This document shows, in pieces, positions 1 through 44,476 of a DNA stretch of 64,000 nt. The notes under the pieces are model-generated. The model made no database searches. It had not been told where the DNA came from and saw nothing but the letters and a program-made list of their open reading frames with translations. The position numbers and the translations under genes are program-made. Numbering within the stretch: position 1 is the first letter of the stretch; each line of letters opens with the position of its first letter. Where the stretch lies: positions 1,056,001 through 1,120,000 of the forward strand of contig CBDFGR010000002.1 in NCBI GenBank assembly GCA_965247115.1. The letters run 5' to 3'. The stretch comes from Myxococcota bacterium. GTDB lineage: Bacteria; Myxococcota_A; UBA9160; SZUA-336.

Positions 1-854
<854 letters not shown>

Positions 855-1398: not shown

Positions 1399-2175
1399 CT
1401 AGGGGTCCGTCTGCAGGAGGGGCTCGTGCGCTGTTTCCAGGCGGGTTATGAACTCCACCACCTCTGCGGCGACCAGCTCCCCCTCCCGATCTACAGGGAT
1501 CACGTGGCTCGAATTTTCGAGCACGCGGAGCTCCCGCTCTTCCGAGGACACTCCGGCCAGCACCTGCTCGGAGTTGGAAAGGGCTACCGAGGGATCCTGA
1601 CGGCTGTAGATCAGCTTGAGTGGTTGATCCACCCGGGCCAGATCCCGAGCCACCTCCCCTCCCAGCAGGACGAGCTGGTGCACAGCGTCGAGGGGCATGC
1701 GCTCGTAGCCAGGGTGGCGCTCCCGGGCCGCTCGGTCCAGGATGCCTGGCCGCCTGGGCACCCAGGGCAGAACCCGGCGCAGGATCGGCAGCGCGGTCCG
1801 GATCAGCCCCGAGAGCTCGAGAGGGGCCGCCATGACGATCGCCCCGGCGACCGCTCGCCGGGCCGCGAGAGCCAGCGCCAGCAGGCCTCCCATCGAGAGC
1901 CCCAGTACGTAGACCCGCTCGTGTGTGCTCGCGAGCTCGTCCCAGGTCTCGAGGCTGGCTTCGAGCCAGGCGCTGCGGTGCGTGCGCGCGAGCTCCCCGG
2001 GATCCGTGCCATGGCCCGGCAGCAACGGACCCAGACACGCGAAGCCGCGAGTCGCGAGCGCCTCGGCCGGTGGGCGGACCTCGTACGGTGTGCCGGTCAG
2101 GCCGTGCAGGCAGAGCACGGCCGGCCCGCGGCCGCCAAGCGCACCAAACCGAAACGGGCCAGCGTCGACCATCAC
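1399..2175 (-). CDS. Carboxylesterase, alpha/beta hydrolase
   Basis: LHGLTG oxyanion segment, GLSMG nucleophile elbow, D and H near the C-terminus. Confidence 0.88.
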   Translation of the reverse strand: MMVDAGPFRFGALGGRGPAVLCLHGLTGTPYEVRPPAEALATRGFACLGPLLPGHGTDPGELARTHRSAWLEASLETWDELASTHERVYVLGLSMGGLLALALAARRAVAGAIVMAAPLELSGLIRTALPILRRVLPWVPRRPGILDRAARERHPGYERMPLDAVHQLVLLGGEVARDLARVDQPLKLIYSRQDPSVALSNSEQVLAGVSSEERELRVLENSSHVIPVDREGELVAAEVVEFITRLETAHEPLLQTDP

Positions 2176-3449
2176 GCGCTCTCCACTTCGGCCGTCCGCT
2201 CGGCCTCGCGGTAGACCTCCTCGATCGGCACGCTGTGCTTGCGAGCGGCCCGCGCACAGTCCTCGTACTCCGCCGCCGCCGTGGCGGCCCCGCCCGGCGA
2301 GCTCGCGAGCTTCACCCGGATCCGACCGAACCGTGTCGCCACGCTGCGGGACTCGCGGGCCAGCTTCAGGCGCGGCATCTCGATGTAGCGCACGCCGATC
2401 GCACTGGACTCGAGCAGGATGCGTCGGGCGAGGGCGTCTCGATCACCCGGTCGAGCAATGACACGAAGCAGCTGGCCGGGCCGACCCTTCTTCATCGCGA
2501 GCGGTGACAGCGAGACGTCGAGAGCCCCATCCGCCAGCAGGCGCTCCATCAGGTAGGGCAGCTGCTCGGGATTCATGTCGTCCAGGTTGGTCTCGATCAC
2601 GCTGACGACATCGCGCTCGAGCGCCCCACTCACCTCGCCCAGCACCGCACGCACCACGTTCGGGAGCGGGCCTGGCCGGCGCTGTCCCGCCCCGAAGCCC
2701 TGGCCCCGAGGCACGAGAGCCGGCATGAGCCCGAAGTCGTCGCACAGCGCGGCCAGCAGCGCCGCTCCTGTCGGCGTAACGGTCTCCCACTCGACGTCGT
2801 AGGGGTACGTCGGGATCCCAATCAAGAGCTCGAGCGTGGCGGGCGCAGGCAGAGGGAGTCGGCCGTGCTCGGTCTCGACCTGTCCGCGACCGAGGGCCAC
2901 GGGCGAGCACGACAGCCGGTCCACGCCGAGGTGCTCGAGTGCGGCACAGACGCCGACGATGTCTCCGATCGCGTCCACGGCCCCCACCTCGTGAAAGTGG
3001 ACCTCGTCCGCCGCGATCGCGTGGACCTTGGCCTCCGCTTCCGCGAGCCGGCCGAAGACCCGTAGACTGCGCTCGCGAACGCGCGGCGCGAGCGCAGCTC
3101 CCGCGAGCAGGGAGCGGATCTCCGCCCAGCGCCTCTCCCGCGCGCTGCGGGCGGGCCCTCGGAAGCTGACCCAGCGTGCACCCAGTGCACCCCTCGTAAC
3201 GCGCGAGACCCGCATCGTGACGCCGCCGATCCCGAGAGACCGAACCGCGGCGCGCACGCCCCGGGCGGGAGCACCGAGATCGAGCAGCGCACCGAGGATC
3301 ATGTTGCCCGCTGCTCCGGAGAAACAGTCCAGGTGCAGAACCCTGGCAGGCTCGGACTTCGCGGCAGGCCTGCGCCCGTCGCTGCCGCGCTTGCGCCCGC
3401 TACTGGTTGATGAGCGAGGCGACGTAGGCCGCGCCGAATCCGTTGTCAA
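2172..3449 (-). CDS. larC: Nickel pincer cofactor biosynthesis protein LarC (start uncertain)
   Basis: DCFSGAAGNM, VHFHEVGAVDAIGDIVG, TPTGAA, IETNLDDMNPE, MKKGRPG and EYEDC motifs. Confidence 0.93.
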   Translation of the reverse strand: MTTDSARPTSPRSSTSSGRKRGSDGRRPAAKSEPARVLHLDCFSGAAGNMILGALLDLGAPARGVRAAVRSLGIGGVTMRVSRVTRGALGARWVSFRGPARSARERRWAEIRSLLAGAALAPRVRERSLRVFGRLAEAEAKVHAIAADEVHFHEVGAVDAIGDIVGVCAALEHLGVDRLSCSPVALGRGQVETEHGRLPLPAPATLELLIGIPTYPYDVEWETVTPTGAALLAALCDDFGLMPALVPRGQGFGAGQRRPGPLPNVVRAVLGEVSGALERDVVSVIETNLDDMNPEQLPYLMERLLADGALDVSLSPLAMKKGRPGQLLRVIARPGDRDALARRILLESSAIGVRYIEMPRLKLARESRSVATRFGRIRVKLASSPGGAATAAAEYEDCARAARKHSVPIEEVYREAERTAEVESA

Positions 3450-4146
3450 TGTTCACCACCGTCACGTTGGAGGCACACGAGTTCAGCATCCCGAGCAACG
3501 CAGTAACCCCGCCGAAAGACGCGCCGTACCCCACGCTGGTCGGGACGGCAATCACCGGCCGTCCGACGAGCCCCCCGATGACCGAGGGCAGGGCCCCCTC
3601 CATTCCCGCGATGGCGATCACGACCTGCGCCGAGCGGATCTGGTCGAGGTACGGGAGCAGCCGGTGCAGCCCGGCCACGCCCACGTCGTAGATGCGTTCG
3701 ACCTTGTTTCCGAACAGCTCGGCGGTCACCACGGCCTCCTCGGCAACCCGTTGATCCGAGGTCCCGGCGCTCACCACGACGATCGTCCCGCGTCCCGGGG
3801 GAGGCCCAGGTCCCTGCCGCAGCACAAGGACGTTGGCCGCGGAGTAATGCGTGAGCTGCGGAAGTCCGAGACGCACCTCGGTCGCGACCTCGGCTTCGAC
3901 GCGCGTGACGAGGACGTTGCCACCGGCCTCGATCAGCGTTTGCGCGATGCGAACGATCTGATCCGCGCTCTTGCCCAGTCCGAGCACGACCTCCGGGTAC
4001 CCGCTGCGCAGGGCCCGGTGCGTGTCGACACGCGCGTCTTCCAGCTGGCGGAAGGGCAGCTGAGCGAGCTGCTCGAGCACCTGATCGCGGGAGAGCTCGC
4101 CCCGCTCCAGGCGTTCCAGCAGGGCATGGAGTCGATCTCGATCCAT
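3400..4146 (-). CDS. larB: Nickel pincer cofactor biosynthesis protein LarB
   Basis: DTHRALRSGYPEVV, AGTSD, DVGVAGLHRL, AGMEGALPSV, PTSVGYG and VNIDNGFGAA motifs. Confidence 0.95.
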   Translation of the reverse strand: MDRDRLHALLERLERGELSRDQVLEQLAQLPFRQLEDARVDTHRALRSGYPEVVLGLGKSADQIVRIAQTLIEAGGNVLVTRVEAEVATEVRLGLPQLTHYSAANVLVLRQGPGPPPGRGTIVVVSAGTSDQRVAEEAVVTAELFGNKVERIYDVGVAGLHRLLPYLDQIRSAQVVIAIAGMEGALPSVIGGLVGRPVIAVPTSVGYGASFGGVTALLGMLNSCASNVTVVNIDNGFGAAYVASLINQ

Positions 4147-4173: not shown

Positions 4174-4721
4174 TTACGGCTCTCGCGGCACCCAGAGGAA
4201 GCGGATGCGTAGGGGACCGTCCCGCTCGATCAGCTCCGTCTCGTACACGATGCCCGTCTCGAAGCCACCGACGCACGCATCTTCGAGCGGCATGGCTCCG
4301 CTCCCCTCGTGATAGGCCAGGCGCGGGACGGAAGGCAGAACGAGGCCTCCCTCCAGCATGCTGAAGGCTCCGGCCGCTGCCGAGATGGCGATGTTTCCGA
4401 GCTCCCGGAGCGCCGACTGCTCGCGCTCGTTGAAGGGAGCATCCGCGCAGGAGCCGATCAGGCAGGACAGCAGATGGTCCGATGCCTCGAAGGACAGGAG
4501 CAGGCCCGCCTGGCCGACCAGCGCGCCGTGGAGGTCGGAGAACACCGCCACGACGCGGTCCTCCGCCGGGAACAGGCTCGAGAACGCCTCGCCCTTCTTG
4601 ATCTTCCTGCAACGGGGGGCGCCATGAGCAGGGTCCGATCGAGGAGGACGGAGAGCGCATTCGCGGCATGCCCCGCTCCGATACTCGTCAGCTCAGCTAG
4701 TCGATCCTCGTTGTGGTTCAT
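4174..4721 (-). pseudogene. cheC: CheC-family phosphatase (DifG-like), split by a 1-nt frameshift at a C6 run
   Basis: N-part ELTSIGAGHAANALS (ORF 4458..4721) and C-part SALRELGNIAISA (ORF 4174..4551); one extra C at 4614-4619 restores MAPPRCRKIKKG. Confidence 0.8.
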
Positions 4722-6336
4722 ACGAAGCTCTCCACCAAAGACCCGGGTTCGAGCAAGAACACAGGCTGTCCATCGGGAAGGATGGCAACGCCTCCGAGCG
4801 CCTTGATACCCGCGAGGAGTGCGGGAACCTCGCGCACGAAGATTTCTAGATCCGAGACCGCGCGGTCGATCAGCAGGCCGAAGCCGAAGCCTCGCGTCTC
4901 GAAGACGAGCACGTTCGCGCTCGCTCGCGTGGGCGAGGGTCCGAGACCGATGTGCTCGGAAAGGTCGAGCAGGGGCAGCGGCTCGTCCTTGAAGACGAAG
5001 AAGGCATCAATGCCGTCGCGCTCGACCTGCGCCTCGGCCACGCTGAGCACCGACTGGAGCTGCCCGACCGGAACGACCACGCGCTCTGTCCCCACCTCGA
5101 GCACAAGCACGCGCTGCAGGGCGACCATGGTGGGAAGCTCGATCTCTGCGATCGTTCCGGCACCGGGGCGATTCACGAGCGTGACAGACCCACCGAGGCT
5201 CTCGAGGCCGCGCTTGACCGCGTCCATGCCGACGCCGCGGCCCGAGACCTCCGTAACCTCGTCGCGGGTGGAGATGCCCGGCTCGAAGATCAGCTCGCAG
5301 ATCCGCTCGGCGGGCAGGTCCTCCGCGACCATCTCGGCGACCAGCCCGCGCTCGACGGCGCGCTGCCGAACCTTCTCCAGATCGATGCCTCTGCCGTCCT
5401 CTTCGACGCGAACGTAGAGCCGTCCCGAGGACTGGGCGGCCGATAGGCGGATGGTCCCCACGGGGTCCTTTCCCACGCGTTCCCGCTCTTCGGGGGTCTC
5501 GATGCCGTGGTCCACGGAGTTCCTGACCAGGTGAAGGAGCGGCTCGTCCAGGTGATCGAGGATGGCGCGGTCCACCTCGACCTCTTCGCCGACGAGCTCG
5601 ACGCGGACGCGCTTGCCAAGCGCTCTGGCGAGGTCGTTGGCGGTGCGCGGGATCCGCTGCAGGACACGCCGCACGGAGGTGGTACGGATGTCGAGCGCCC
5701 TGCGCCGCAGCTCACGGACTACGTGTTCCATGCCGTCGAGCTCTTCGCAGAACTCTCTGTGCAGCTCCCAGACGGGAGCGTCGCGGTGGAGGGCTTCGAG
5801 GCGGGCCTGGCGCTGCATCAGCTCGCCCACCGAAGCCAGGAAGCGGTCAACAACCTCGGTCCGTACGCGGACCGATCGCGGGAGCGGAGGCGCCGATAGG
5901 TCCGTGCTTTTTTTCCGGAGTCCTCCGGGAGCGGGCACATGGGCGCAAGCGACGGCGGCTGGGCCAGCAGCTCGACCAGATCGGCGCGGGGCGGTGGCGC
6001 CTCTCCAGTGGCGTCGACCGCCGCCACCATCTGCTCGAGCCCGTGGAGGACCTTCGAGATCAGCGCGAGGGCGGAGTCATCGGGCTGGCCCCCACTCCCC
6101 CGCAGTGGCTCCATCCAGTCCTCGTAGCGATGGGAGAGCGAGGAGACGGAAGCGTAGTCGAGCGACGCAGCCATCCCCTTGATCGAGTGCGCCATGCGGA
6201 AGAGCGTATCGATCGCCTCGTCCGCTGCCTGGCGGGACGGGCCGCCCTCGAGCGCAGTCAGGGCTCCCGACATCTCGATCAAGTGATCGTTTGCCTCTTC
6301 GACGAACAGGCGTCTGTACTTCTCGAGGTCCATCAA
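4718..6336 (-). CDS. cheA: CheA histidine kinase (DifE-like), encoded in two frames joined by a -1 shift at A7 (5908-5914)
   Basis: Hpt domain LFRMAHSIKGMAA in 5818..6336; dimerisation, HATPase (HLVRNSVDHG, EDGRG, GRGVGMDAV) and CheW-like domains in 4718..5938. Confidence 0.92.
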
Positions 6337-6339
6337 CCT

Positions 6340-6717
6340 CTATCCTTCTCGAGACTTCTCCATTGCCTTCCCGACGACCTCGAGCACCTTGTCCGGCTTG
6401 AACGGCTTGACGATGAAGTCACGAGCGCCGGCCTCAAGCGCGTCCATGACCAGGGTCTCCTGGCCCAGGGCGCTACACATGACGATGCAGGCACTCGGGC
6501 TCATGCCCATGATCTCCTTCAACGCCTCCAGCCCGCTCTTGCGTGGCATCACGATGTCGAGCATCACGAGATCCGGCGTGTGCTCTTGGAAGAGCTCGAT
6601 GGCTTCGTTTCCGTCGATTGCTTCGGCCGCAATCTCGAAGCCGCCCTCCGTCAGGATGTCGCGCAACATCTCCCGCATGAAAGCGGCGTCGTCCGCGATC
6701 AGAACGCGCTTAAGCAT
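6340..6717 (-). CDS. cheY: CheY-like response regulator (DifD-like)
   Basis: IADD, LDIVMP, CSA and KPF receiver motifs; single domain. Confidence 0.93.
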   Translation of the reverse strand: MLKRVLIADDAAFMREMLRDILTEGGFEIAAEAIDGNEAIELFQEHTPDLVMLDIVMPRKSGLEALKEIMGMSPSACIVMCSALGQETLVMDALEAGARDFIVKPFKPDKVLEVVGKAMEKSREG

Positions 6718-7289
6718 GACTCCTGTCCTCCCTGATGAGCGCGCGACTGTGTCAGCAGCGCTGTCGCACGCTCGAGAAACCCGTCTAGATCCACGAGACC
6801 CAGCGTCCCGTTGGCCCGATGTACTTCCCGCACGAACGGGTACTCCTCGTTCACGTTCTCTTCTCTCCCCGTCCAGACCGCGCGGTCGCGATCAATCCGA
6901 GACACGTGCCCCACGCGGAGCCCAATCCTCGAGTCGCCGTGTTCCAACAGCAGAACATGGCTGTAGTGCAATCCCGCGTGACCCGGCGCCTGTCTTGCGG
7001 GTCCCGGCCCGCGGGCGGCCGCGGGCGACCCGCCTTCGCTCAGGCCTTCGGCCTTCGCTGCGCGCGCCGCTTCCGCGGCGCTTGCTTCTTGCGCCGGCTC
7101 CAGCCCGAATACGGCCCCGCCGTTCATCACGACGAGCGGCTCGCCTCGGATGTTCAGGACGCCTCCGACGTTGGGCGGCACGAGCGGGATCAGGCGGGGC
7201 TGTTGCGCCCACATCACCTCGGCGACCGCGTCCAGGGGAATCGCGAAGGATCGCTCCCCGAGATCGAACTGCAGCCAGGATGTCGCCAC
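6699..7289 (-). CDS. cheW: CheW coupling protein (DifC-like) with a 29-aa repeat-derived insertion
   Basis: FAIPLDAVAEV, IPLVPPNVGGVLNIRGE and IGLRV motifs. Confidence 0.88.
   Translation of the reverse strand: MATSWLQFDLGERSFAIPLDAVAEVMWAQQPRLIPLVPPNVGGVLNIRGEPLVVMNGGAVFGLEPAQEASAAEAARAAKAEGLSEGGSPAAARGPGPARQAPGHAGLHYSHVLLLEHGDSRIGLRVGHVSRIDRDRAVWTGREENVNEEYPFVREVHRANGTLGLVDLDGFLERATALLTQSRAHQGGQESCLSAF
6994..7085. repeat. Multi-hairpin palindromic repeat element, copy 2, in-frame inside cheW
   Basis: Matches 1225-1315; CTTGC direct repeats 87 bp apart. Confidence 0.85.
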
Positions 7290-7303: not shown

Positions 7304-8587
7304 TCAGCGCGTGCGAAAGCGCAGCGCGACCTCGTTCAGCTCGTTTGACATGCTCGACAGGCGCGCTGCCTGTCGGACCATTTCGTCCATCGCCGCGCGC
7401 TGACCGCTGAGCCCGCCACGCATCTCGTCTGCGGCCTTGGCTCCGTTCGTCACCTCTTGCGAGATGCTCTCGATGTCGCGTACCAGGTGCTCGCCGTCAC
7501 TCGACTGGCGGGTGGCCTGGTCGAAGATGTCGTCGGCCCTGCGCGAGGCCTTCTCGATCGAGGCCTGCACCTGCTCGAGCGCTTGCAGGATCTCAGCCAG
7601 GTCGCTGCGGCGCTCGCTCACGTCCTCGCCCATGGAATGGGTGATGGCTGAGACGTTCGAGGAGCCTTCCTCCAGCTGGCGAATCAGCGTCTCGATCTGG
7701 CCCGCCGAGTCGCCCGCAGTCTCGGCGAGCTTGCGGATCTCGTCCGCCACCACGGAGAAGCCGCGCCCCGCGTCGCCCGCACGGGCCGCCTCGATCGAGG
7801 CGTTCAGCGACAACAGGTGGGTTTTCTCGACGACGCTCGAGATCATCTCGGTAACACGGTGGGCGGACTGGATCTTCTGCTCGAAGTCCTGCATCAAGCG
7901 CTCGGACTCTTCGATCTTCTCGAACAAGCTGCTCATCTTCGTGGCCGAGTTTCGCGACACCTCCACGCACGACGTCGTCTGCTCGCTGGCGTCGCTCGTC
8001 AGGCTCGACGCCTCGCTCGCAGCCTCGGCGTTCTCCTGCATTGCCGAGGAGATCTCGCGCATCCGCAGGGAGATGTGCTTGACATCCTCCTGCTCCTTGA
8101 GCGTGCTCTGCGCCACCGACTCCATGTTGTGGGAGATCTCCTGGCTCGCCCCGTTCACTTGCCGCGACGACTCCGAGAGGTCGAGCGAAGCCTGGGCAAC
8201 CTCGTCGGCGGCTCGCTGCAGGCGTTCGACGAGCTCCCGCAAGCTCTCGAGCATGGCCGCGACGGAGCGCGCAAGATCGACCGTCTCGTCGGGAAAGCGG
8301 CGTCCGCCGCGGGGGGAGAGCTCCGTCGTCAGGTCACCGCTGCTGATGCTCTCGGTGCAGTTGCGGAGCCAGCCGAGGTTCCTGGTGATCTGTCTCGAGT
8401 AGAGCGATCCGATTCCCGTGCCGACTCCGAGTGCGGCGAAGAAGGAGCCCCACGCAGGTACACCCGACGCCTCGAGAACGGCGGGCAGTCCCGCGGCTAC
8501 CGCCGCAACCACGACGAAGCCCAGCACGAACTTGTGCGAAAGATCCAGGCGCAAAGCGGACTCTCGATGCGCAACTCCAGCGCGCAA
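7304..8587 (-). CDS. Methyl-accepting chemotaxis protein lacking a periplasmic sensor domain (DifA-like)
   Basis: Two adjacent hydrophobic helices, HAMP ([10 protein letters not shown]), signalling hairpin [32 protein letters not shown]. Confidence 0.93.
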
Positions 8588-8593
8588 ACCTGT

Positions 8594-9619
8594 CTACTGT
8601 TCGGACGGTCTGCTTCGCGGCTTGAAGTGCTCGTAGCCCGAAAATCCGCCACGAATGCGCTTCCCGGCGCGCAGGAAACGAATGCCACGCCCATGCCTCA
8701 CGACACCGATTTCCGTCACGCGACAGCCGAGCCGCCTGGCGAGCACGCTGGACAGGGGGGCCCGGGAGCGCACGCTGAAGAGCAGCTCGTAATCCTCCCC
8801 GCCCGCCACCGCGAGGGATTCCGGGTCGAGCCCGCGCTCCCGGCTGAGGTCGCGAAGCCCGCGCGGCAATGGCAGCGCATCGAGCCAGATCTCTGCGCCC
8901 ACCCCGCTCTCCCGCAGGACGTGAGAAAGGTCCCGCTCCAGGCCGTCCGAGAGGTCCACCGCAGCGGTTGCCAGCCCGCTCCGCGCGAGCTTGGGCCCGA
9001 CACTGAGTGGCGGCTGGGGGCGCAGGTGACAGGCGGCGAAGCGGCGCTGGCCGGGCCCGCGAAGCGGCCCCGCCTCCAGGAGTTCGAGCCCGAGTGCTGC
9101 CGCTCCGAGCGTCCCGGTCACCAGAATCCGGTCCCCGGCCCGCGCTCCGCCGCGGCGTAGGGCGGCACCCCGGTGCACGCTTCCCACGGCGCTGACGGAC
9201 AGGGACCACAGCGGAGCAGAGACCGTGTCGCCTCCGACCAGCGGACAGCCGAATCTGCGCGCGCTCGCGAGCAGCCCGCGCAAGAAAGCGTCCAGCGCGG
9301 CGGGGTCTGTGGCGCCAGGGAGCCCAAGTGTCAGCAGGAAGCCCAGCGGCTTCGCCCCCATCGCGTTCAAGTCCGACAAGTTCACAGCTAGAGCCTTGTG
9401 ACCGAGAGAGCGTGCGTCCGTGGTCCGCCAGCGAAAGTGGACATCCTCCACCAGCGCATCGGCCGTCCACACCAGATCCGCGCCACTCGGAGGCCGCAGG
9501 ACGGCGGCGTCATCGCCAATGCCGCGAAGCCAGGCTCCGCCGGGCTCGCCAACCCGGCGCCTGATGGTCTCGATCAGTCCGAGCTCCCCGAGCGCGTCGA
9601 GGTCAATCCCGCTGGCCAC
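8594..9619 (-). CDS. thiL: Thiamine-monophosphate kinase
   Basis: GIGDDAA, DALVEDVHF, NLSDLNAMG, GGDT, DLSDGL and GGEDYELLF motifs. Confidence 0.95.
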   Translation of the reverse strand: MASGIDLDALGELGLIETIRRRVGEPGGAWLRGIGDDAAVLRPPSGADLVWTADALVEDVHFRWRTTDARSLGHKALAVNLSDLNAMGAKPLGFLLTLGLPGATDPAALDAFLRGLLASARRFGCPLVGGDTVSAPLWSLSVSAVGSVHRGAALRRGGARAGDRILVTGTLGAAALGLELLEAGPLRGPGQRRFAACHLRPQPPLSVGPKLARSGLATAAVDLSDGLERDLSHVLRESGVGAEIWLDALPLPRGLRDLSRERGLDPESLAVAGGEDYELLFSVRSRAPLSSVLARRLGCRVTEIGVVRHGRGIRFLRAGKRIRGGFSGYEHFKPRSRPSEQ

Positions 9620-9637
9620 CAGGGGAGTGTAGGGTAG

Positions 9638-12091
9638 TTACGAGCTGAGCGGCGCGGTCTCGACGCGGCCGCCACGACGTCGGGTCTTGGCCTTTGCCGA
9701 GAGCGGCTCGCTGAGCGCGATCTCGAGCACCTCTTCCATGGTGCGGACGAAGTTGAACTCCATGCGCCGCGCCAGCTCTGGTGGAATCTCCTCGAGATCG
9801 TTTCGGTTGGCGTGGGGGATGATCAGACGTCGGATGCCTCGGCGCAGGGCGGCCATCGCCTTCTCGCGCACGCCACCGACGGGAAGCACGCGTCCTCGCA
9901 GCGTGATTTCTCCGGTCATCGCCACGTCGGAGCGCACCGGGTTGTCTGTGAGCAGCGACAGGATGGCAGTAGCCATGGTCACTCCGGCGGAGGGACCATC
10001 CTTTGGCGTTGCCCCCGCCGGAACATGCACGTGGACCTCGTTTCGCTGCAGGGTCTCTGCGATGTCGAGCTCGGCGGCGCGCCAGCGCACGTACGAGAGC
10101 GCGGCCTGGCCCGACTCCTTCATCACATCTCCCAGCTGCCCGGTCAGAATGAGGCCGCGTCCGCGCACCATCGTGGCTTCGATCGCGAGCACCTCTCCAC
10201 CGGTCTCCGTCCACGCCAGACCGCGCGCCAGTCCCGGCTCGGCTCCTCTCGGAATGGCCTCGTTGATCACAGGAGCCGGTCCCAGGTGTGCCTGCAGGTT
10301 GCGCAGCGTGATCGAGACCCGATCGGCTTCACCCTCCGCGATGCGGCGCGCGACCTTGCGCAACATGCGGCTGATCTCGCGCTCCAGCGAGCGTACGCCT
10401 GCTTCCTGCGTATAGCCGGTGATCACCTCGCGAATTGCAGCGCGCGAGACCTTTACGTTCTCCGACTTGAGCCCGCACTCCTCGATCTGTCTCGGCACCA
10501 GGAAGCGCCGCGCGATCACCTCCTTCTCTTCCGGCGCATAGCCAGGAAGACGGATCACCTCCATGCGATCGAGCAGCGGGCGGGGAATCGGATCGACCAG
10601 GTTCGCGGTCGCGATGAACAGTGCGCGTGACAGGTCGTACGGTACGTTCAGGTAGTGATCCCGGAAGCTGGAGTTCTGCTCGGGATCCAGCACCTCGAGC
10701 ATCGCGGACGCAGGGTCCCCCCGGTAGTCGGCGCCGAGCTTGTCGATCTCGTCGAGCATGAACACGGGGTTGATCTTGCCGCCCTGCCGCATTCCCTGAA
10801 GGATGCGCCCCGGCATCGCTCCCACGTAGGTGCGACGGTGTCCCCGGATCTCTGCCTCGTCCCGCATCCCGCCGAGGGACATGCGCACGAAGCTGCGACC
10901 CATGGCCTGGGCGATCGAACGCCCGAGCGAGGTCTTGCCGACCCCAGGGGCGCCGACGAGACACAGGATGGGACCCTTGCCGCCGCCTCCCCCGCGCAGC
11001 TTGTGAACGGCCAGGAATTCGAGGATGCGCTCCTTGACCTTGTTCAGGTACGCGTGGTCGCGCTCAAGGACCTCTCGCGAGACCTTCAGGTCCAGGTTGT
11101 CCTCAGATGCTTCGCTCCACGGGAGCTCGACCATCCACTCCAGGTAGGTGCGCACGACCTGAGTCTCCGAGGAATCGGGATGCATGCGGGCCAGGCGCTC
11201 GAGCTGGCGCTGCGACTCAGCCTGCGCCTCTTCGTTCATCCCTGCTGCTTCGATGCGGGCGCGCAGCTCCTCGATCTCAGAGTTGCGGTCGTCTCCCTCG
11301 CCGAGCTCCTCCTGGATCTGGCGCATCTGCTCACGCAGGAGGATCTCGCGCTGCGTCCGGGTCATCTCCTCGCGCGCGGCCGACTGGAACTCGGCCTGCA
11401 TGGAGGATACGGCCAGCTCGCGGCGCAGAAGCGTCTCGACTCGCCGCAGCCTCCGCACCGGGTCGAGTATTTCGAGCGTCTCCTGCGCCTCATCGACACG
11501 CAGCCGTAGGTTCGCCGCAACGAGATCCGCCAGTCGGCCCGGGTCTTCCACGTTCGCTGTGATCGACAGCAGCTCCGGCGGCAGGTGTCGGAGCGGCAGA
11601 AGCTCGGAGATCTTCTCGCTTACGCTACGGATCAGCGCCTCGATCTCGACCGACCACTCCGGCGGCTCATCGGGACCCAACTCCTCGACCTCGACGTCGA
11701 TGTGGGGCTCGCAGCGCAGGAAGTTCTTGATCCGGACCTTCGATAGCCCCTGCACGAGCACCTTCAGCCGCTCGTCAGGAAGACGCATGAGGCGCATGAT
11801 CATCCCGACGGTACCAACGCTGTAGATGTCCTCCGGGCCGGGGTCTTCGACTTCCGGATCGCGCTGGGTGGCAAGCGCGAGCAATCGATCCCCCTCGAGA
11901 GCGGTCTCGATGGCGTGCACCGAAACGTCTCTGCCGACAAAGAGCGGCAGAATCATCGAGGGGAACACTACGGCGTCGCGAATCGGAAGCAGAGGGAGTG
12001 ACTCGGGAACCGTGAACGTATTGTCGGGGGAGTCTCTGTCCAAAGGCCGCTCCGCTGTCCTGGTCGACCGTGCGTGCCCTCCGAGCGGCAC
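9638..12091 (-). CDS. lon: ATP-dependent protease La (start uncertain)
   Basis: LPLLPIRD N-domain, GAPGVGKTS Walker A, RGHRRTYVGAMPG, PKDGPSAG catalytic Ser motif. Confidence 0.97.
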   Translation of the reverse strand: MPLGGHARSTRTAERPLDRDSPDNTFTVPESLPLLPIRDAVVFPSMILPLFVGRDVSVHAIETALEGDRLLALATQRDPEVEDPGPEDIYSVGTVGMIMRLMRLPDERLKVLVQGLSKVRIKNFLRCEPHIDVEVEELGPDEPPEWSVEIEALIRSVSEKISELLPLRHLPPELLSITANVEDPGRLADLVAANLRLRVDEAQETLEILDPVRRLRRVETLLRRELAVSSMQAEFQSAAREEMTRTQREILLREQMRQIQEELGEGDDRNSEIEELRARIEAAGMNEEAQAESQRQLERLARMHPDSSETQVVRTYLEWMVELPWSEASEDNLDLKVSREVLERDHAYLNKVKERILEFLAVHKLRGGGGGKGPILCLVGAPGVGKTSLGRSIAQAMGRSFVRMSLGGMRDEAEIRGHRRTYVGAMPGRILQGMRQGGKINPVFMLDEIDKLGADYRGDPASAMLEVLDPEQNSSFRDHYLNVPYDLSRALFIATANLVDPIPRPLLDRMEVIRLPGYAPEEKEVIARRFLVPRQIEECGLKSENVKVSRAAIREVITGYTQEAGVRSLEREISRMLRKVARRIAEGEADRVSITLRNLQAHLGPAPVINEAIPRGAEPGLARGLAWTETGGEVLAIEATMVRGRGLILTGQLGDVMKESGQAALSYVRWRAAELDIAETLQRNEVHVHVPAGATPKDGPSAGVTMATAILSLLTDNPVRSDVAMTGEITLRGRVLPVGGVREKAMAALRRGIRRLIIPHANRNDLEEIPPELARRMEFNFVRTMEEVLEIALSEPLSAKAKTRRRGGRVETAPLSS

Positions 12092-12141
12092 GGCCCTGTG
12101 ACCGCAAGAGAAAAATCGACCTGCGGAGCGGTGAACTTGAT

Positions 12142-14103
12142 TCAGGGCACCTCGTTTACGAGTCGGATGGCGCCTCTGTTCACCGTGAGCACGTTTGGCG
12201 ACTTGCGCGTTCCACCGCTCTCGTCGAACGAGGTCAGCCCAGTCAAGCCGGAGTAATCCTTCACCAGGAGTATGCGACGCCGCAGCTGCTCACGAGAGAT
12301 CGTTCCGTTGCTCTGGATCAGGCGCCGAAGCAGCATCGCCGCGTCGTATCCCTCCGCGGCGTACACATCGGGCTCCCGACCGTACGCGGCGTAGTAGCGC
12401 TGCACGAAGCGCTCCACTCCCGGCTGTGGGCTCCAGACGAAGAACGCATCGACGAAGATGGCGCGAACGGCCTCGCTTCCGCCACGCTCCACGAGCTCTG
12501 ACGAATTCCACTCGCTTCCGCCGAGATACGTCACGTCGCTAACGTCGTAGAAGCGCAGCTGTGGAAGGATCAGTCCGACCTTCTCGCCCACGTCCGGAAT
12601 GAAGAGTGCGTCGAAGTCCACGTACGGAGGCAGATCGGCAAGGCTCGGGTCTTCGAGCTGCGCTGCGTTCTCGACAGGATGCCGCAGCAGGCGATCTCGT
12701 AGCTTGAGCAGCTCCTTCTCTTCGTCCGTCAGGTAGTGGAGCCCGACGAGCTTCTTGATCTCTTCCTGCACGTCCACGGCGTCGGGGTCGTACCGCTCTA
12801 CGCCAACGATCCTCCCCCCGAGCGCCTCTACCTTTTCCCAGAACAGGTTCTTGAGCGCGAGCCCCTGGTCGTCGTCGGGGTAGAGGATGGCGAAGCTCCG
12901 GTACTCTCGGACCTCGACGGCATAGGACGCGAGCGTACTCACCTCGTCTTCAGGGGTCAGACCGAAGCGAAAGATGAAGTCTCCCAGCTCAGAGATGTCG
13001 TCACGTCTCGACAGCGTGAGCAAGGGCGTCCCGCCCGCCTCTGCAGACGGAGCGGCGGCTGCGGACACCGCCGAGCTGAGCGGGCCAATGATGGCGCTTA
13101 CGCCCTCTTCGACCAGCTCGCGCACGGCACGGGAGCCCGCATCGACCTGGCCCTCCGTGTCGCGTATGGCAATCCGGTAGGGGGTGCTCGGATCGTCAAA
13201 GAGATCGAGGGCCAGCACCACCCCTTGCAGCACGGCCTCGCCAAAAGGGGCAAACGGGCCGGACAGTGGCACCGCGACTCCGAGGGTCTCGACGACCGTC
13301 GCGGATCCTCGCCGGGTCCGGTCCAAGAGCTGCTGGCGTTCCGCCTCGTCAAGCCCACGCAGGCGCCGGGGCAAGCGCGCCAGCGCCAGCTCGGCAGCCT
13401 CGTAGTCCGAGCGGGCCAGCGCCCGGCTCGCGATCTCGAGGTTGACGCGGTCGTAGACGGGACCGCGTGGGAGTGTCGCCACGAGACTCTCGAGCGCCGC
13501 GTCCCTCAGCCTGTCCTCGATCAGCTCATCGAGCTCGAGGTCGATCTCGAGCAAGGCGTCGGGGCTGTCCGTGTCGCGACGGCTGAGCGCAAGGGCTCGT
13601 ACCGCGTCGGCGTAATCTCCGGACGCCCTGGCCAGGTCGGCCCGAAGCCTGTGGATGCGCGGGCGCAGGCGGTCATTTGCAAGACGCCACTCGGTGCGCT
13701 CCAGGACACGACGGCCATCCTCGGGCCGGCCGAGGTCGCGATAGACCTCGCCCGCGCGCAGGCCGGCCTCCGGGTTGAGCGGGCTGCGGCTCTCCTCCTC
13801 CACGAGGCGCCGCCACGTGGCGGCAGCCCCCTCACGCTCTCCCAACGCCAGCTGGACCTCTCCTAACAGGAAGAGGGCCTCGTCGATCCGGCCGCTCTCG
13901 ACCAGCTCACGCAAGAAGCGCTCGAGGACGCGCCGCGCCCCCTCGAGCTCACCGCTGGCAAGCTGCTCGCGCGCCAGCGCCAGATCCGCAGCGGCCGCCT
14001 CCTCGTATGGCACGGCGATGCCGTTCCGGATCACCGGCGGACGGGCGCAGGCGAGCAGCAGAACCGCTGCAACCGGCCAGATCCAGCGGATCGCGTCTCG
14101 CAT
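12142..14103 (-). CDS. Lipoprotein with TPR-like N-terminus and periplasmic-binding-type C-terminus (LpoA-like PBP activator)
   Basis: LLAC lipobox; LGVAVPLSGPFA, IIGPL, DFDALFIPD and YAAEGYDA motifs. Confidence 0.75.
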   Translation of the reverse strand: MRDAIRWIWPVAAVLLLACARPPVIRNGIAVPYEEAAAADLALAREQLASGELEGARRVLERFLRELVESGRIDEALFLLGEVQLALGEREGAAATWRRLVEEESRSPLNPEAGLRAGEVYRDLGRPEDGRRVLERTEWRLANDRLRPRIHRLRADLARASGDYADAVRALALSRRDTDSPDALLEIDLELDELIEDRLRDAALESLVATLPRGPVYDRVNLEIASRALARSDYEAAELALARLPRRLRGLDEAERQQLLDRTRRGSATVVETLGVAVPLSGPFAPFGEAVLQGVVLALDLFDDPSTPYRIAIRDTEGQVDAGSRAVRELVEEGVSAIIGPLSSAVSAAAAPSAEAGGTPLLTLSRRDDISELGDFIFRFGLTPEDEVSTLASYAVEVREYRSFAILYPDDDQGLALKNLFWEKVEALGGRIVGVERYDPDAVDVQEEIKKLVGLHYLTDEEKELLKLRDRLLRHPVENAAQLEDPSLADLPPYVDFDALFIPDVGEKVGLILPQLRFYDVSDVTYLGGSEWNSSELVERGGSEAVRAIFVDAFFVWSPQPGVERFVQRYYAAYGREPDVYAAEGYDAAMLLRRLIQSNGTISREQLRRRILLVKDYSGLTGLTSFDESGGTRKSPNVLTVNRGAIRLVNEVP

Positions 14104-15203
14104 CAGTCGAACAGGTCGCGCAACGCGTCGAGAAAACCGCGGCGACGTGGGCTGACGGTGTCGCCAGCCTCCTGCGCAAACTCCTCGAGGAGCTCCCGCT
14201 GGCGATCGGTCAGCTTGGTAGGAACCTCGACGAACAGCTCCACCAACAGATCTCCGCGCGGTCCGCCGCCAAGGCGCGGAAGGCCCTTGCCGCGCAGACG
14301 CAACAGCTGACCCGACTGCGATCCGGCAGCGATCTTGAGGGACTCCCTACCCTCCATGCTCGGGACCTCGATGTCGCAGCCCAGGCTCGCCTGGGAGATC
14401 GATAAGGGTAGCTCACAATAGAGGTCGGGCCCGTCGCGCTTGAACAGCGGGTGATCCTCTACGCGGACCACCACGAACAGGTCGCCCGGCGGCCCGCCTC
14501 CGTAGCCCGCCTCTCCCTCGCCGGATAGGCGCAGCCGGACTCCACTGTCGACACCGGGCGGGATGCGGACGCTCAGGCTCTGCACCGTCTCGACACGCCC
14601 CTGGCCCCGGCAGTCGCCACACGCGCGCTTCAAGCTCTGGCCCTGGCCACCGCAGCGGTCGCAGGTGCGACTGATCCGAAAGAAGCCCTGTTGCATGGCG
14701 ACCTGACCGTGGCCGCCGCAGCGAGGGCAGGTCTCGCGCTCGCCCCCCTGCCCCTCACAGGTCTCGCAGCTCCGATGCCTGGGCACCCGGATCGACTGGG
14801 TACCGCCGACCGCCGCCACCGAGAAGTCGAGCTCCAGGTCGTAGCGCAGATCGGCCCCACGGCGTCCGCCACGCCGTCCGCCCCTGCCGCGTCCAAAGAC
14901 ATCGCCGCCGAAGAACTCGCTGAACAGGTCGCCGAAGCTCGACAGGGGATCGGAGCCCTCGAAGGGATCCACCCCTGCGCCTCCGATGGCGCTATGTCCG
15001 AAGCGATCGTAGGACGCGCGCTTCTCGGGATCGGAGAGCACGGCGTACGCCTCTGACGCTTCCTTGAAGCGCTCTTCCGCGTCGGGGTCGTCGGGATTCT
15101 TGTCGGGATGGTACTGGTGCGCCAGCGTGCGATAGGCGCGCTTGAGCACGTCGGCGTCGGCGGAGCGATCGACGCCGAGAACCTCGTAGTAATCCCGTTT
15201 CAC
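14103..15203 (-). CDS. dnaJ: Chaperone DnaJ
   Basis: KRDYYEVLG, HPD motif, G/F-rich region, four CxxCxGxG repeats; GTG start at 15203. Confidence 0.96.
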   Translation of the reverse strand: MKRDYYEVLGVDRSADADVLKRAYRTLAHQYHPDKNPDDPDAEERFKEASEAYAVLSDPEKRASYDRFGHSAIGGAGVDPFEGSDPLSSFGDLFSEFFGGDVFGRGRGGRRGGRRGADLRYDLELDFSVAAVGGTQSIRVPRHRSCETCEGQGGERETCPRCGGHGQVAMQQGFFRISRTCDRCGGQGQSLKRACGDCRGQGRVETVQSLSVRIPPGVDSGVRLRLSGEGEAGYGGGPPGDLFVVVRVEDHPLFKRDGPDLYCELPLSISQASLGCDIEVPSMEGRESLKIAAGSQSGQLLRLRGKGLPRLGGGPRGDLLVELFVEVPTKLTDRQRELLEEFAQEAGDTVSPRRRGFLDALRDLFD

Positions 15204-15240
15204 GGTCGCGTAGGCTAGCAAACCCCCGCGCTGGCAGGCC

Positions 15241-17085
<1,845 letters not shown>

Positions 17086-17131
17086 CGTCTCCCTGCAGAC
17101 TGGCGGCCGGCGTTGCGTCGGAAGTTGGGGG

Positions 17132-17758
17132 CTAGTCCGAAGTCTCCTCAGGCCCACTCGACACCGCGACGAGTGCGGCGCGGATCAGACGGTCCTTGAG
17201 CAGATACCCCTTCTGGAAGACCTCGGCGACGACCCCCGACTCGTGCTCAGCGCTTGGCATTTGCCGGATTGCTTCGTGGATCTTGGGATCGAATCGCTCG
17301 CCCTCGGACTCGATCCCCTGTACGCCCAGCTTCTCCAGCGCCTGCATGAGGGATCGATACGTGAGCTCGATACCTTCCAAAAGACTCTTCGCGTCCCCGC
17401 CCTCCTCCTGTCGAGCATGGCCGACCGCTCGCTCCAGATTATCGACCACGGGCAGCAGCTGCTTGATCAGATTCTCGTGAGCGTAGTTGTGCAGGTCCTG
17501 GCGCTCTTTCAGCGCGCGACGCTTGAAGTTCTCGAACTCCGCTGCGATCCGAAGATACTTCTCGTTGAGCGCGCCAAGCTCGTCCTGGGCGTCGCCCTCG
17601 GAAGCCTCGGCGAGCTCGTCTTCTTCGGCATCGGGGTCGGGGACCGCGTCTTCGGCTGGCGCGGCTGTCTCATCCGCGACTTCGGGAGCGGGGGTCTGTT
17701 CCAGCTCCACGCGGAGCTCTTCGGGCAGACTGACCTTGGGCCCCTTGGAGTCCGACAC
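17132..17758 (-). CDS. grpE: Nucleotide exchange factor GrpE
   Basis: [28 protein letters not shown] and [14 protein letters not shown] motifs. Confidence 0.96.
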
Positions 17759-38284: not shown

Positions 38285-38541
38285 TGTAGGCCGTGAGCCG
38301 AGTTTGGACAGATGGGGTCGATGATCTAAGAGAGGGTTCCGGGCTCGCTGGAGCAAGGAGTTTCTGGAGGCGGGCAAGAAGCGCCTGCTGGGAGATACGC
38401 AGCGAGAGGCGAGCTCGAGTGAGGTCCACGATCTGCGCAAGGAGAACGCCCGGCTCAAGGAGCGGGTGGCCGAGACGGTGCTCGAGAACCGTCCGCTCAA
38501 AAAAAGCGGACCAACGGTCCCAGAAGATCTGACGACGTACA
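38285..38541 (+). mobile_element. Internally deleted miniature IS (IS3/IS481-like), 257 bp
   Basis: Imperfect terminal inverted repeats TGTAGGCCGTGAG.../...CTGACGACGTACA; orfA remnant WSKEFLEAGKKRLLGDT...LKKS. Confidence 0.8.
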
Positions 38542-44044: not shown

Positions 44045-44476
44045 TGTAGGCCGTGAGCCGAGTTTGGACAGATGGGGTCGATGATCTAAGAGAGGGTTCC
44101 GGGCTCGCTGGAGCAAGGAGTTTCTGGAGGCGGGCAAGAAGCGCCTGCTGGGAGATACGCAGCGAGAGGCGAGCTCGAGTGAGGTCCACGATCTGCGCAA
44201 GGAGAACGCCCGGCTCAAGGAGCGGGTGGCCGAGACGGTAATCGAGAACCGTCTGCTCAAAAAAAGCGGGACGGGCTCCGATTTGCCCGAGGACGAGGCG
44301 TGAGGGGGAGCGCCTCGGAGAAGCTCGAGCGGATCCGCCTGGTGGAGGGCTCTTCGCTTTCGATCCGGCGCACGCTGACCGAGATCGGGCTGCCGCACTC
44401 GACGTTTTCCGCCTGGTACAAGCGCTACCTGGAAGGCGGACCGGAGGCGCTCGAAGACCGCAAGCCACGCCTCTGG
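44045..44476 (+). mobile_element. Second relic of the same IS (left end, orfA 3' part, orfB start)
   Basis: First about 225 bp nearly identical to 38285-38509; continues SASEKLERIRLVEGSSLSIRRTL...WYKRYLEGG. Confidence 0.82.

Follow-up and report, generated by a model that had tools for sequence, protein, structure and literature searches.

A likely programmed -1 frameshift in cheA of a Myxococcota bacterium, predicted to yield a free Hpt protein beside a full-length kinase and recurrent in the class UBA9160

In this study, we found that cheA of a Myxococcota bacterium (class UBA9160) appears to be one gene laid out in two overlapping frames, which meet at an A_AAA_AAA heptamer in the linker between the Hpt and dimerisation domains. 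Conservation among relatives, the phase of substitutions and the alleles of other strains agree with each other, and this sequence evidence strongly supports what the initial annotation had proposed, namely programmed -1 recoding with a free Hpt protein and a full-length CheA as its products. The mechanism is probably tandem -1 ribosomal slippage: by default, translation would yield a free Hpt protein of 171 aa, and ribosomes that slip back one base on two lysine tRNAs at A_AAA_AAA would yield a kinase of 538 aa. An upstream Shine-Dalgarno (SD)-like site may help the slip. The full kinase would then phosphorylate the free Hpt in trans, the free Hpt would buffer phosphate or carry it towards CheY, and the slip rate would set the Hpt-to-kinase ratio.

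The gene lies on the minus strand of the window, i.e. the whole stretch of 64,000 nucleotides that was analysed, in an operon with the order chemoreceptor-cheW-cheY-cheA-cheC. The operon consists of a methyl-accepting chemoreceptor gene (7304..8587; PF00015), cheW (6699..7289; PF01584), cheY directly upstream of cheA (6340..6717; PF00072), cheA, and a cheC-like gene (4174..4721) with weak NF041093 matches on both of its halves. The position of cheY immediately 5' of cheA is shared by 143 of the 150 loci with enough flanking sequence. Upstream on the same strand (8594-17157) are genes that we take to be like thiL, lon, a gene for a periplasmic lipoprotein, dnaJ and dnaK, and two genes presumably resembling larC and larB follow cheC (2172-4146, minus strand); the window starts with what we assume to be the end of groEL (39-854, plus strand). 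No second cheA-like match was found in the genome, which makes cheA single. Elsewhere in the genome, two matches to flagellin exceed the cut-off, and there are three further Hpt domains (C3:428909-429954; C3:2296760-2296996), one of them in a 151-aa frame.

The first ORF of cheA (5818..6333) comprises an Hpt (P1) domain (PF01627, residues 6-108) with an HSIK motif that includes the conserved His, a linker and a 29-aa out-of-frame tail. At the heptamer this frame reads GGA AAA AAA GCA, and it closes at TGA 5820-5818. The H-kinase_dim, HATPase_c and CheW domains are found by Pfam in the -1 frame (4718..5908), which the slip would join to Hpt. Together, the two frames contain the complete CheA domain set, albeit with NCBIfam scores below the curated cut-offs, and no Pfam match to a P2 domain was obtained in either frame. 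The predicted products had been given as a 172-aa Hpt and a CheA of about 539 aa, and the computed lengths agree well with these values, being 171 aa from ATG 6333 or 172 aa from TTG 6336 for Hpt and 538 aa, counted from ATG 6333, for full-length CheA after the slip. The SD-like GGAGG (5922..5926), with a best anti-SD duplex of -9.5 kcal/mol, lies 7 nt 5' of the heptamer (5908..5914), and the arms of a potential stem (5868..5904), CGGACCTATCG / CGATCGGTCCG, begin 3 nt 3' of the A7 run; on the minus strand, the GGAGG, the run and both arms are exactly where the initial annotation had placed them.

The break in cheA is real. Contigs from eight sequencing runs were compared, seven of which cover the A-run (the X13 contigs do not cross it), and no indel was found at the A7 run in any of these seven. 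One run, X1, is a possible source of the assembly itself; without it, six other studies cover the site. In X7, X8 and X10, three of the seven covering runs, the heptamer reads A_AAA_AAG, with the difference at 5908, so that the homopolymer is down to six, and the frame is still split. The apparent frameshift in the adjoining cheC, on the other hand, is an assembly error, because four of four runs carry one more G at 4613, beside a G6 run at 4614-4619; in both congeners cheC is a single ORF of 182-183 aa. Thus, the concern about sequencing error that had been attached to this locus does not hold for cheA and does hold for cheC. The view that tandem AAA lysine codons are unusual in this genome is borne out: of the 638 Lys-Lys pairs counted in long high-GC3 frames, 13 are AAA-AAA, and runs of seven or more A/T number only 24 in the 5.17-Mb genome. 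An A7 run of an insertion sequence (IS), which had been used as an in-frame control, belongs to broken IS remnants, lies where an orfA-like frame ends and is weak in that role. There are two such near-identical IS-like remnants with an LKKS motif, with the A7 runs at 38499-38505 and 44259-44265, and both look truncated.

Comparison of orthologues, which had been suggested as a check for a conserved disruption, indicates that the split is widespread. A cheA orthologue is present in 185 of the 225 genomes of the class, and 155 loci from 154 genomes were scored among the matches listed. The gene is split by -1 in 125 of these 155 loci, spanning ten family labels, and every split is at an A7-A11 run (A7 in 60 loci, A8 in 14, A9 in 21, A10 in 29 and A11 in one). 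An in-phase A_AAA_AAA is present in 125 of 125, the A7 runs are phased as A_AAA_AAA in 60 of 60, and the run ends at a codon boundary in 122; no A6G heptamer was found among these 125 genome loci. The linker of split loci ranges from about 120 to 460 nt, and the run persists throughout. Outside the class, all six scored CheAs are continuous, the best matches there (E about 4e-71) being far weaker. Depending on the test, the number of loci was 155, 124 or 123: L193 (second copy in genome G251) was left out of the n=124 tests and L134 additionally out of the n=123 tests, and loci without Hpt in the stretch (L039, L117, L148 and L181), paralogues (L208-L211) and loci from outside the class (L197-L207) were dropped. 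L134 (G251:C31), a second orthologue in G251, has a site identical to that of G029, which belongs to another family, and probably reflects bin contamination.

A continuous cheA was found in 27 of the 155 loci, 22 of them without any run of five or more A and five with an A8-A10 run kept in frame. In all five of the latter a -1 stop lies within five codons. These loci (L082, L094, L099 and L166 of genus g177, and L098) show a reversed layout, in which the full-length protein is read in frame; E. coli dnaX also has this layout, in frame with a -1 stop. Four in-frame A10 loci show mixed phases. Three further loci, L139, L188 and L194, two of them with A7, need +1 or -2 and have a TGA one codon past the run, and because two of the three come from one genus, this split is likely to be inherited. 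The kinase tree requires a minimum of 11 changes between run and no run, with several continuous genes nested in split clades. Within the family of this genome, 12 of 30 loci are continuous without a run, and support in this part of the tree is too low to separate gains from losses.

Substitutions counted against two congeners locate the point where selection changes frame. In the part 5' of the run, 27 of 37 and 61 of 90 substitutions fall at third positions of the Hpt frame. From the run to the 0-frame stop, all eight and all eleven substitutions fall at third positions of the kinase frame and no kinase residue is altered, which indicates that this stretch is selected as kinase sequence. The out-of-frame tail of Hpt varies freely between the congeners.

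The position of the stop codon that would end the free Hpt differs between this family and the others. Outside the family of this genome, a 0-frame stop lies within six codons of the run in 86 of 106 loci, as compared to about 5% expected from the remainder of the linker. The stop is TAG at 76 of these 106 loci; off frame in the kinase body, TGA stops number 840 and TAG stops 74. Such early TAG stops suggest an Hpt that is deliberately ended, even if the count is inflated by shared ancestry. In the family of this genome, in contrast, the stop is 26-29 codons past the run, the tail shows no constraint, and where the stop falls looks incidental; moreover, the 12 continuous loci without a run imply that some lineages can do without a free Hpt. 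A serious alternative, which we nevertheless consider less likely than not, is that the slip is real but has no other purpose than to limit the amount of full-length CheA, free Hpt being a by-product that is broken down. This alternative overlaps with the preferred reading and concerns the purpose of the slip, not its mechanism. It would accommodate the unconstrained tail, the seemingly incidental stop of this family and the 22 continuous orthologues without a run, but not readily the early TAG stops of the other families, nor the in-frame genes that combine a run with a -1 stop close by, which would yield Hpt while hardly lowering the kinase. According to PMC10782961, an Hpt that has been liberated is functional; from this, we infer that the free Hpt here may be phosphorylated in trans and may buffer or carry phosphate.

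The initial annotation had described the site as an SD, heptamer and stem cassette of the dnaX/IS3 type, a description that is borne out for the heptamer and the SD core but not for the SD spacing or the stem. All three genomes of the genus share an unchanged GGAG core, with anti-SD energies of -6.6 and -10.0 kcal/mol in the two congeners. However, the SD spacing is 7 nt here, with a mode of 7-8 nt across loci, and the range given for -1 stimulation by an internal SD is 9-14 nt (PMC5009743). Against a synonymous-codon null, SD strength showed no excess (mean -5.28 vs -5.31), so the amino acids of the linker alone could explain it. The stem folds like shuffled sequences (z of -1.44, 0.03 and -0.07 for 43, 58 and 45 nt, respectively, i.e. 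not above chance), two of its pairs are lost without compensation in each congener, and a change at 5894 breaks its inner pair in six of the eight sequencing runs; as a stimulator, this stem is unsupported. Stem-loop stimulation has been reported for A_AAA_AAA and A_AAA_AAG in the IS3 family (PMC4066793).

Across the class, both signals vary with the length of the run, and the 3' stem-loop, unconserved in this genus, is over-represented at short runs in other families. For the 73 A7-A8 loci, best anti-SD energies run from -6.5 to -7.7 (control windows taken upstream give -3.4 to -3.7), with a hairpin z near -1.7. Taken by genus (29 genera), short runs have an SD of -6.7 against -3.8 in controls (p 6e-6) and a hairpin z of -1.4 against -0.2 (p 2e-4), p-values which overstate the significance because the genera are related. 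No hairpin excess was seen in the family of this genome. For the A9-A11 loci (51 loci in 25 groups), neither SD nor hairpin exceeded the control windows (p 0.73 and 0.81). In genus g29, a covarying 9-pair hairpin (L047:1438-1486 and 21 other loci) is 96.5% paired with eight two-sided changes in 22 sequences, although related sequences can beat shuffles; the alignment (A1) comprised 22 of the 23 loci, L167 being left out on account of an insertion. This hairpin starts just past the TAG, 13 nt beyond the run, which is farther than the 5-7 nt past the slip site that is typical of 3' stimulators.

The same two products could also arise, as in Thermus dnaX, if RNA polymerase adds one A or if ribosomes slide without direction on the run, and it is this route that the relatives with A9-A11 runs probably use. 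At the A7 locus of this genome it is less likely, and we regard it as an improbable explanation of the split. In its favour, no run shorter than A7 was found among the 125 -1 genome loci, and the long runs are without SD and hairpin. In addition, closure of the third frame within six codons is seen in 23 of the 50 loci with long runs and in 10 of the 73 with short runs, against a background of 4.5%, as expected if long runs slip both ways, and the three +1 loci and the four in-frame loci whose A10 runs are of mixed phase point in the same direction; the three +1/-2 loci, two of them at A7, fit slippage better than a ribosomal -1 shift. Slippage has been proposed even for A7 dnaX genes (PMC3711429), and sliding on consecutive AAA codons has been demonstrated in E. 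coli (PMC4363877). On the other side, the split persists in the A_AAA_AAG strains although their run is down to six A's, the A7 runs are in the ribosomal phase in all 60 of the -1 loci that have them, and an SD is of no use to a polymerase. Furthermore, transcriptional realignment is described as needing more than seven A's (PMC3711429), whereas this genome has seven and three of the sequencing runs have six; A8-A11 is found in 65 of the 125 -1 loci.

We favour the ribosomal route at this cheA on the basis of the short run, the fixed phase and direction, the A_AAA_AAG alleles and the kept SD core. A fixed direction of the shift is a criterion for ribosomal shifting (PMC3711429), and the direction is -1 in 125 loci with three +1 exceptions. 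Against this route, A_AAA_AAA shifts less readily in E. coli than A_AAA_AAG does (PMC5009743), and A6G is absent from the 125 -1 loci. The genome encodes both lysine tRNAs, which, by analogy with earlier work on dnaX, may explain why A_AAA_AAA and not A_AAA_AAG is the norm in the class. Extended to all lineages, the data allow a broader and more tentative interpretation, to which we give slightly less than even chances: the whole class might tune cheA by recoding, with a functional free phosphocarrier and a kinase made in a set ratio. Lineages would then have switched repeatedly among a ribosome-driven form (A7-A8, accompanied by an SD and a hairpin), one driven by slippage (A9-A11, no helpers, both off-frames closed), the reversed in-frame form and a plain fusion.

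A bipartite CheA, in which Hpt and kinase come from two genes with starts of their own and act in trans with no recoding, seems very improbable. Such an arrangement would have precedents in separate Hpt genes of the same operon, interpreted as bipartite (PMC10782961), and in this genome ATG 5818 could serve as a start, as it overlaps the TGA stop (5820-5816) and has an SD-like site of -6.2. Yet the 30 codons 5' of this ATG are under kinase-frame selection, the ATG cuts into the dimerisation domain (the Pfam match begins at residue 13 of the query and this Met is residue 33), the same Met is found in continuous relatives, and the A-run would have no explanation. The sole start before the run-to-stop stretch is GTG 5938, which is without an SD. 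In 28 of 124 loci there is no start codon between the opening of the kinase frame and the dimerisation motif, and a kinase-frame start with an SD of -6 or better exists in only 23 of 124; judged from these sequences, a start of its own for the kinase half can be rejected as a general explanation. Finally, assembly error, a pseudogene or DNA-level phase variation at cheA, to which the error in cheC and the possibility that the three +1 and some in-frame run loci are run-length variants might lend some colour, is hardly credible given the absence of indels in seven runs, the single direction in 125 loci, the retention of the His motif in 121 of 123 loci and of the N-box in 113 of 123, and substitutions mostly at wobble positions in both halves.

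The layout suggested for this gene, a free Hpt and a kinase produced from one cheA by a slip, was not found described for CheA. In the FSscan study, cheA reportedly comes up in a screen for +1 shifts in E. coli. Full-text searches brought up no account of cheA carrying a conserved frameshift, with subscription journals and bioRxiv supplements outside reach. The word cheA is absent from the first 300,000 of the 449,034 characters of PMC5009743 and from the main text and two of the three supplements of PMC3711429, the remaining supplement of which may bear on novelty; in the available text of PMC10782961 the word frameshift does not occur, and its supplements have no row for UBA9160. The best-known programmed frameshifts of bacteria are those of prfB, dnaX and IS elements (PMC3711429), and well-supported cases in chromosomal genes are rare. 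If programmed recoding of cheA is true, it would mean translation-level control of phosphate flow in chemosensing, and some annotations of an Hpt gene beside a kinase gene, read as bipartite, would represent single recoded genes. The roughly 130 natural sites, with their trade-off between run length and helper signals, would also provide a panel for the question of ribosome versus polymerase slippage on poly-A.

Two forms of CheA from one gene are known from E. coli, where internal initiation gives a second form, CheA-short, without the phosphorylated His. Here, too, two forms would come from one gene, but the extra product would be the His-bearing domain. The Dif system of Myxococcus xanthus, in which DifD is a phosphate sink within the pathway, has the same set of genes, i.e. 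chemoreceptor, CheW, CheY, CheA and CheC, a likeness confined to the gene set (PMC4671073). CheA3 and CheA4 of Cereibacter sphaeroides resemble the proposed arrangement in that Hpt is separate from the kinase, acting there in trans, but they are encoded by two genes with separate starts, and no fused product is described in the available text (PMC10782961). In mechanism, the nearest relative is dnaX with its tau and gamma products, especially the two-ORF Chlorobium type, where a short N-terminal and a full product likewise come from one gene. Both dnaX and cheA use an A-rich heptamer or an A7-A10 run, in both the ribosomal and transcriptional routes appear to interchange between lineages, and in both the split -1 and the in-frame layout with a -1 stop occur (PMC3711429). 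Unlike dnaX, however, cheA encodes a chemosensory histidine kinase with a phosphoacceptor domain as the short product, its SD spacing is 7-8 nt and not 10, and it has no conserved stem in this genus; because of this spacing and the lack of a conserved stem, we do not class it as a textbook dnaX/IS3 cassette. OrfA/OrfAB of the IS3 family share with cheA a short default product, a full enzyme made by a -1 slip and the same heptamers (PMC4066793). In contrast to these mobile elements, cheA is a chromosomal signalling gene kept across the class.
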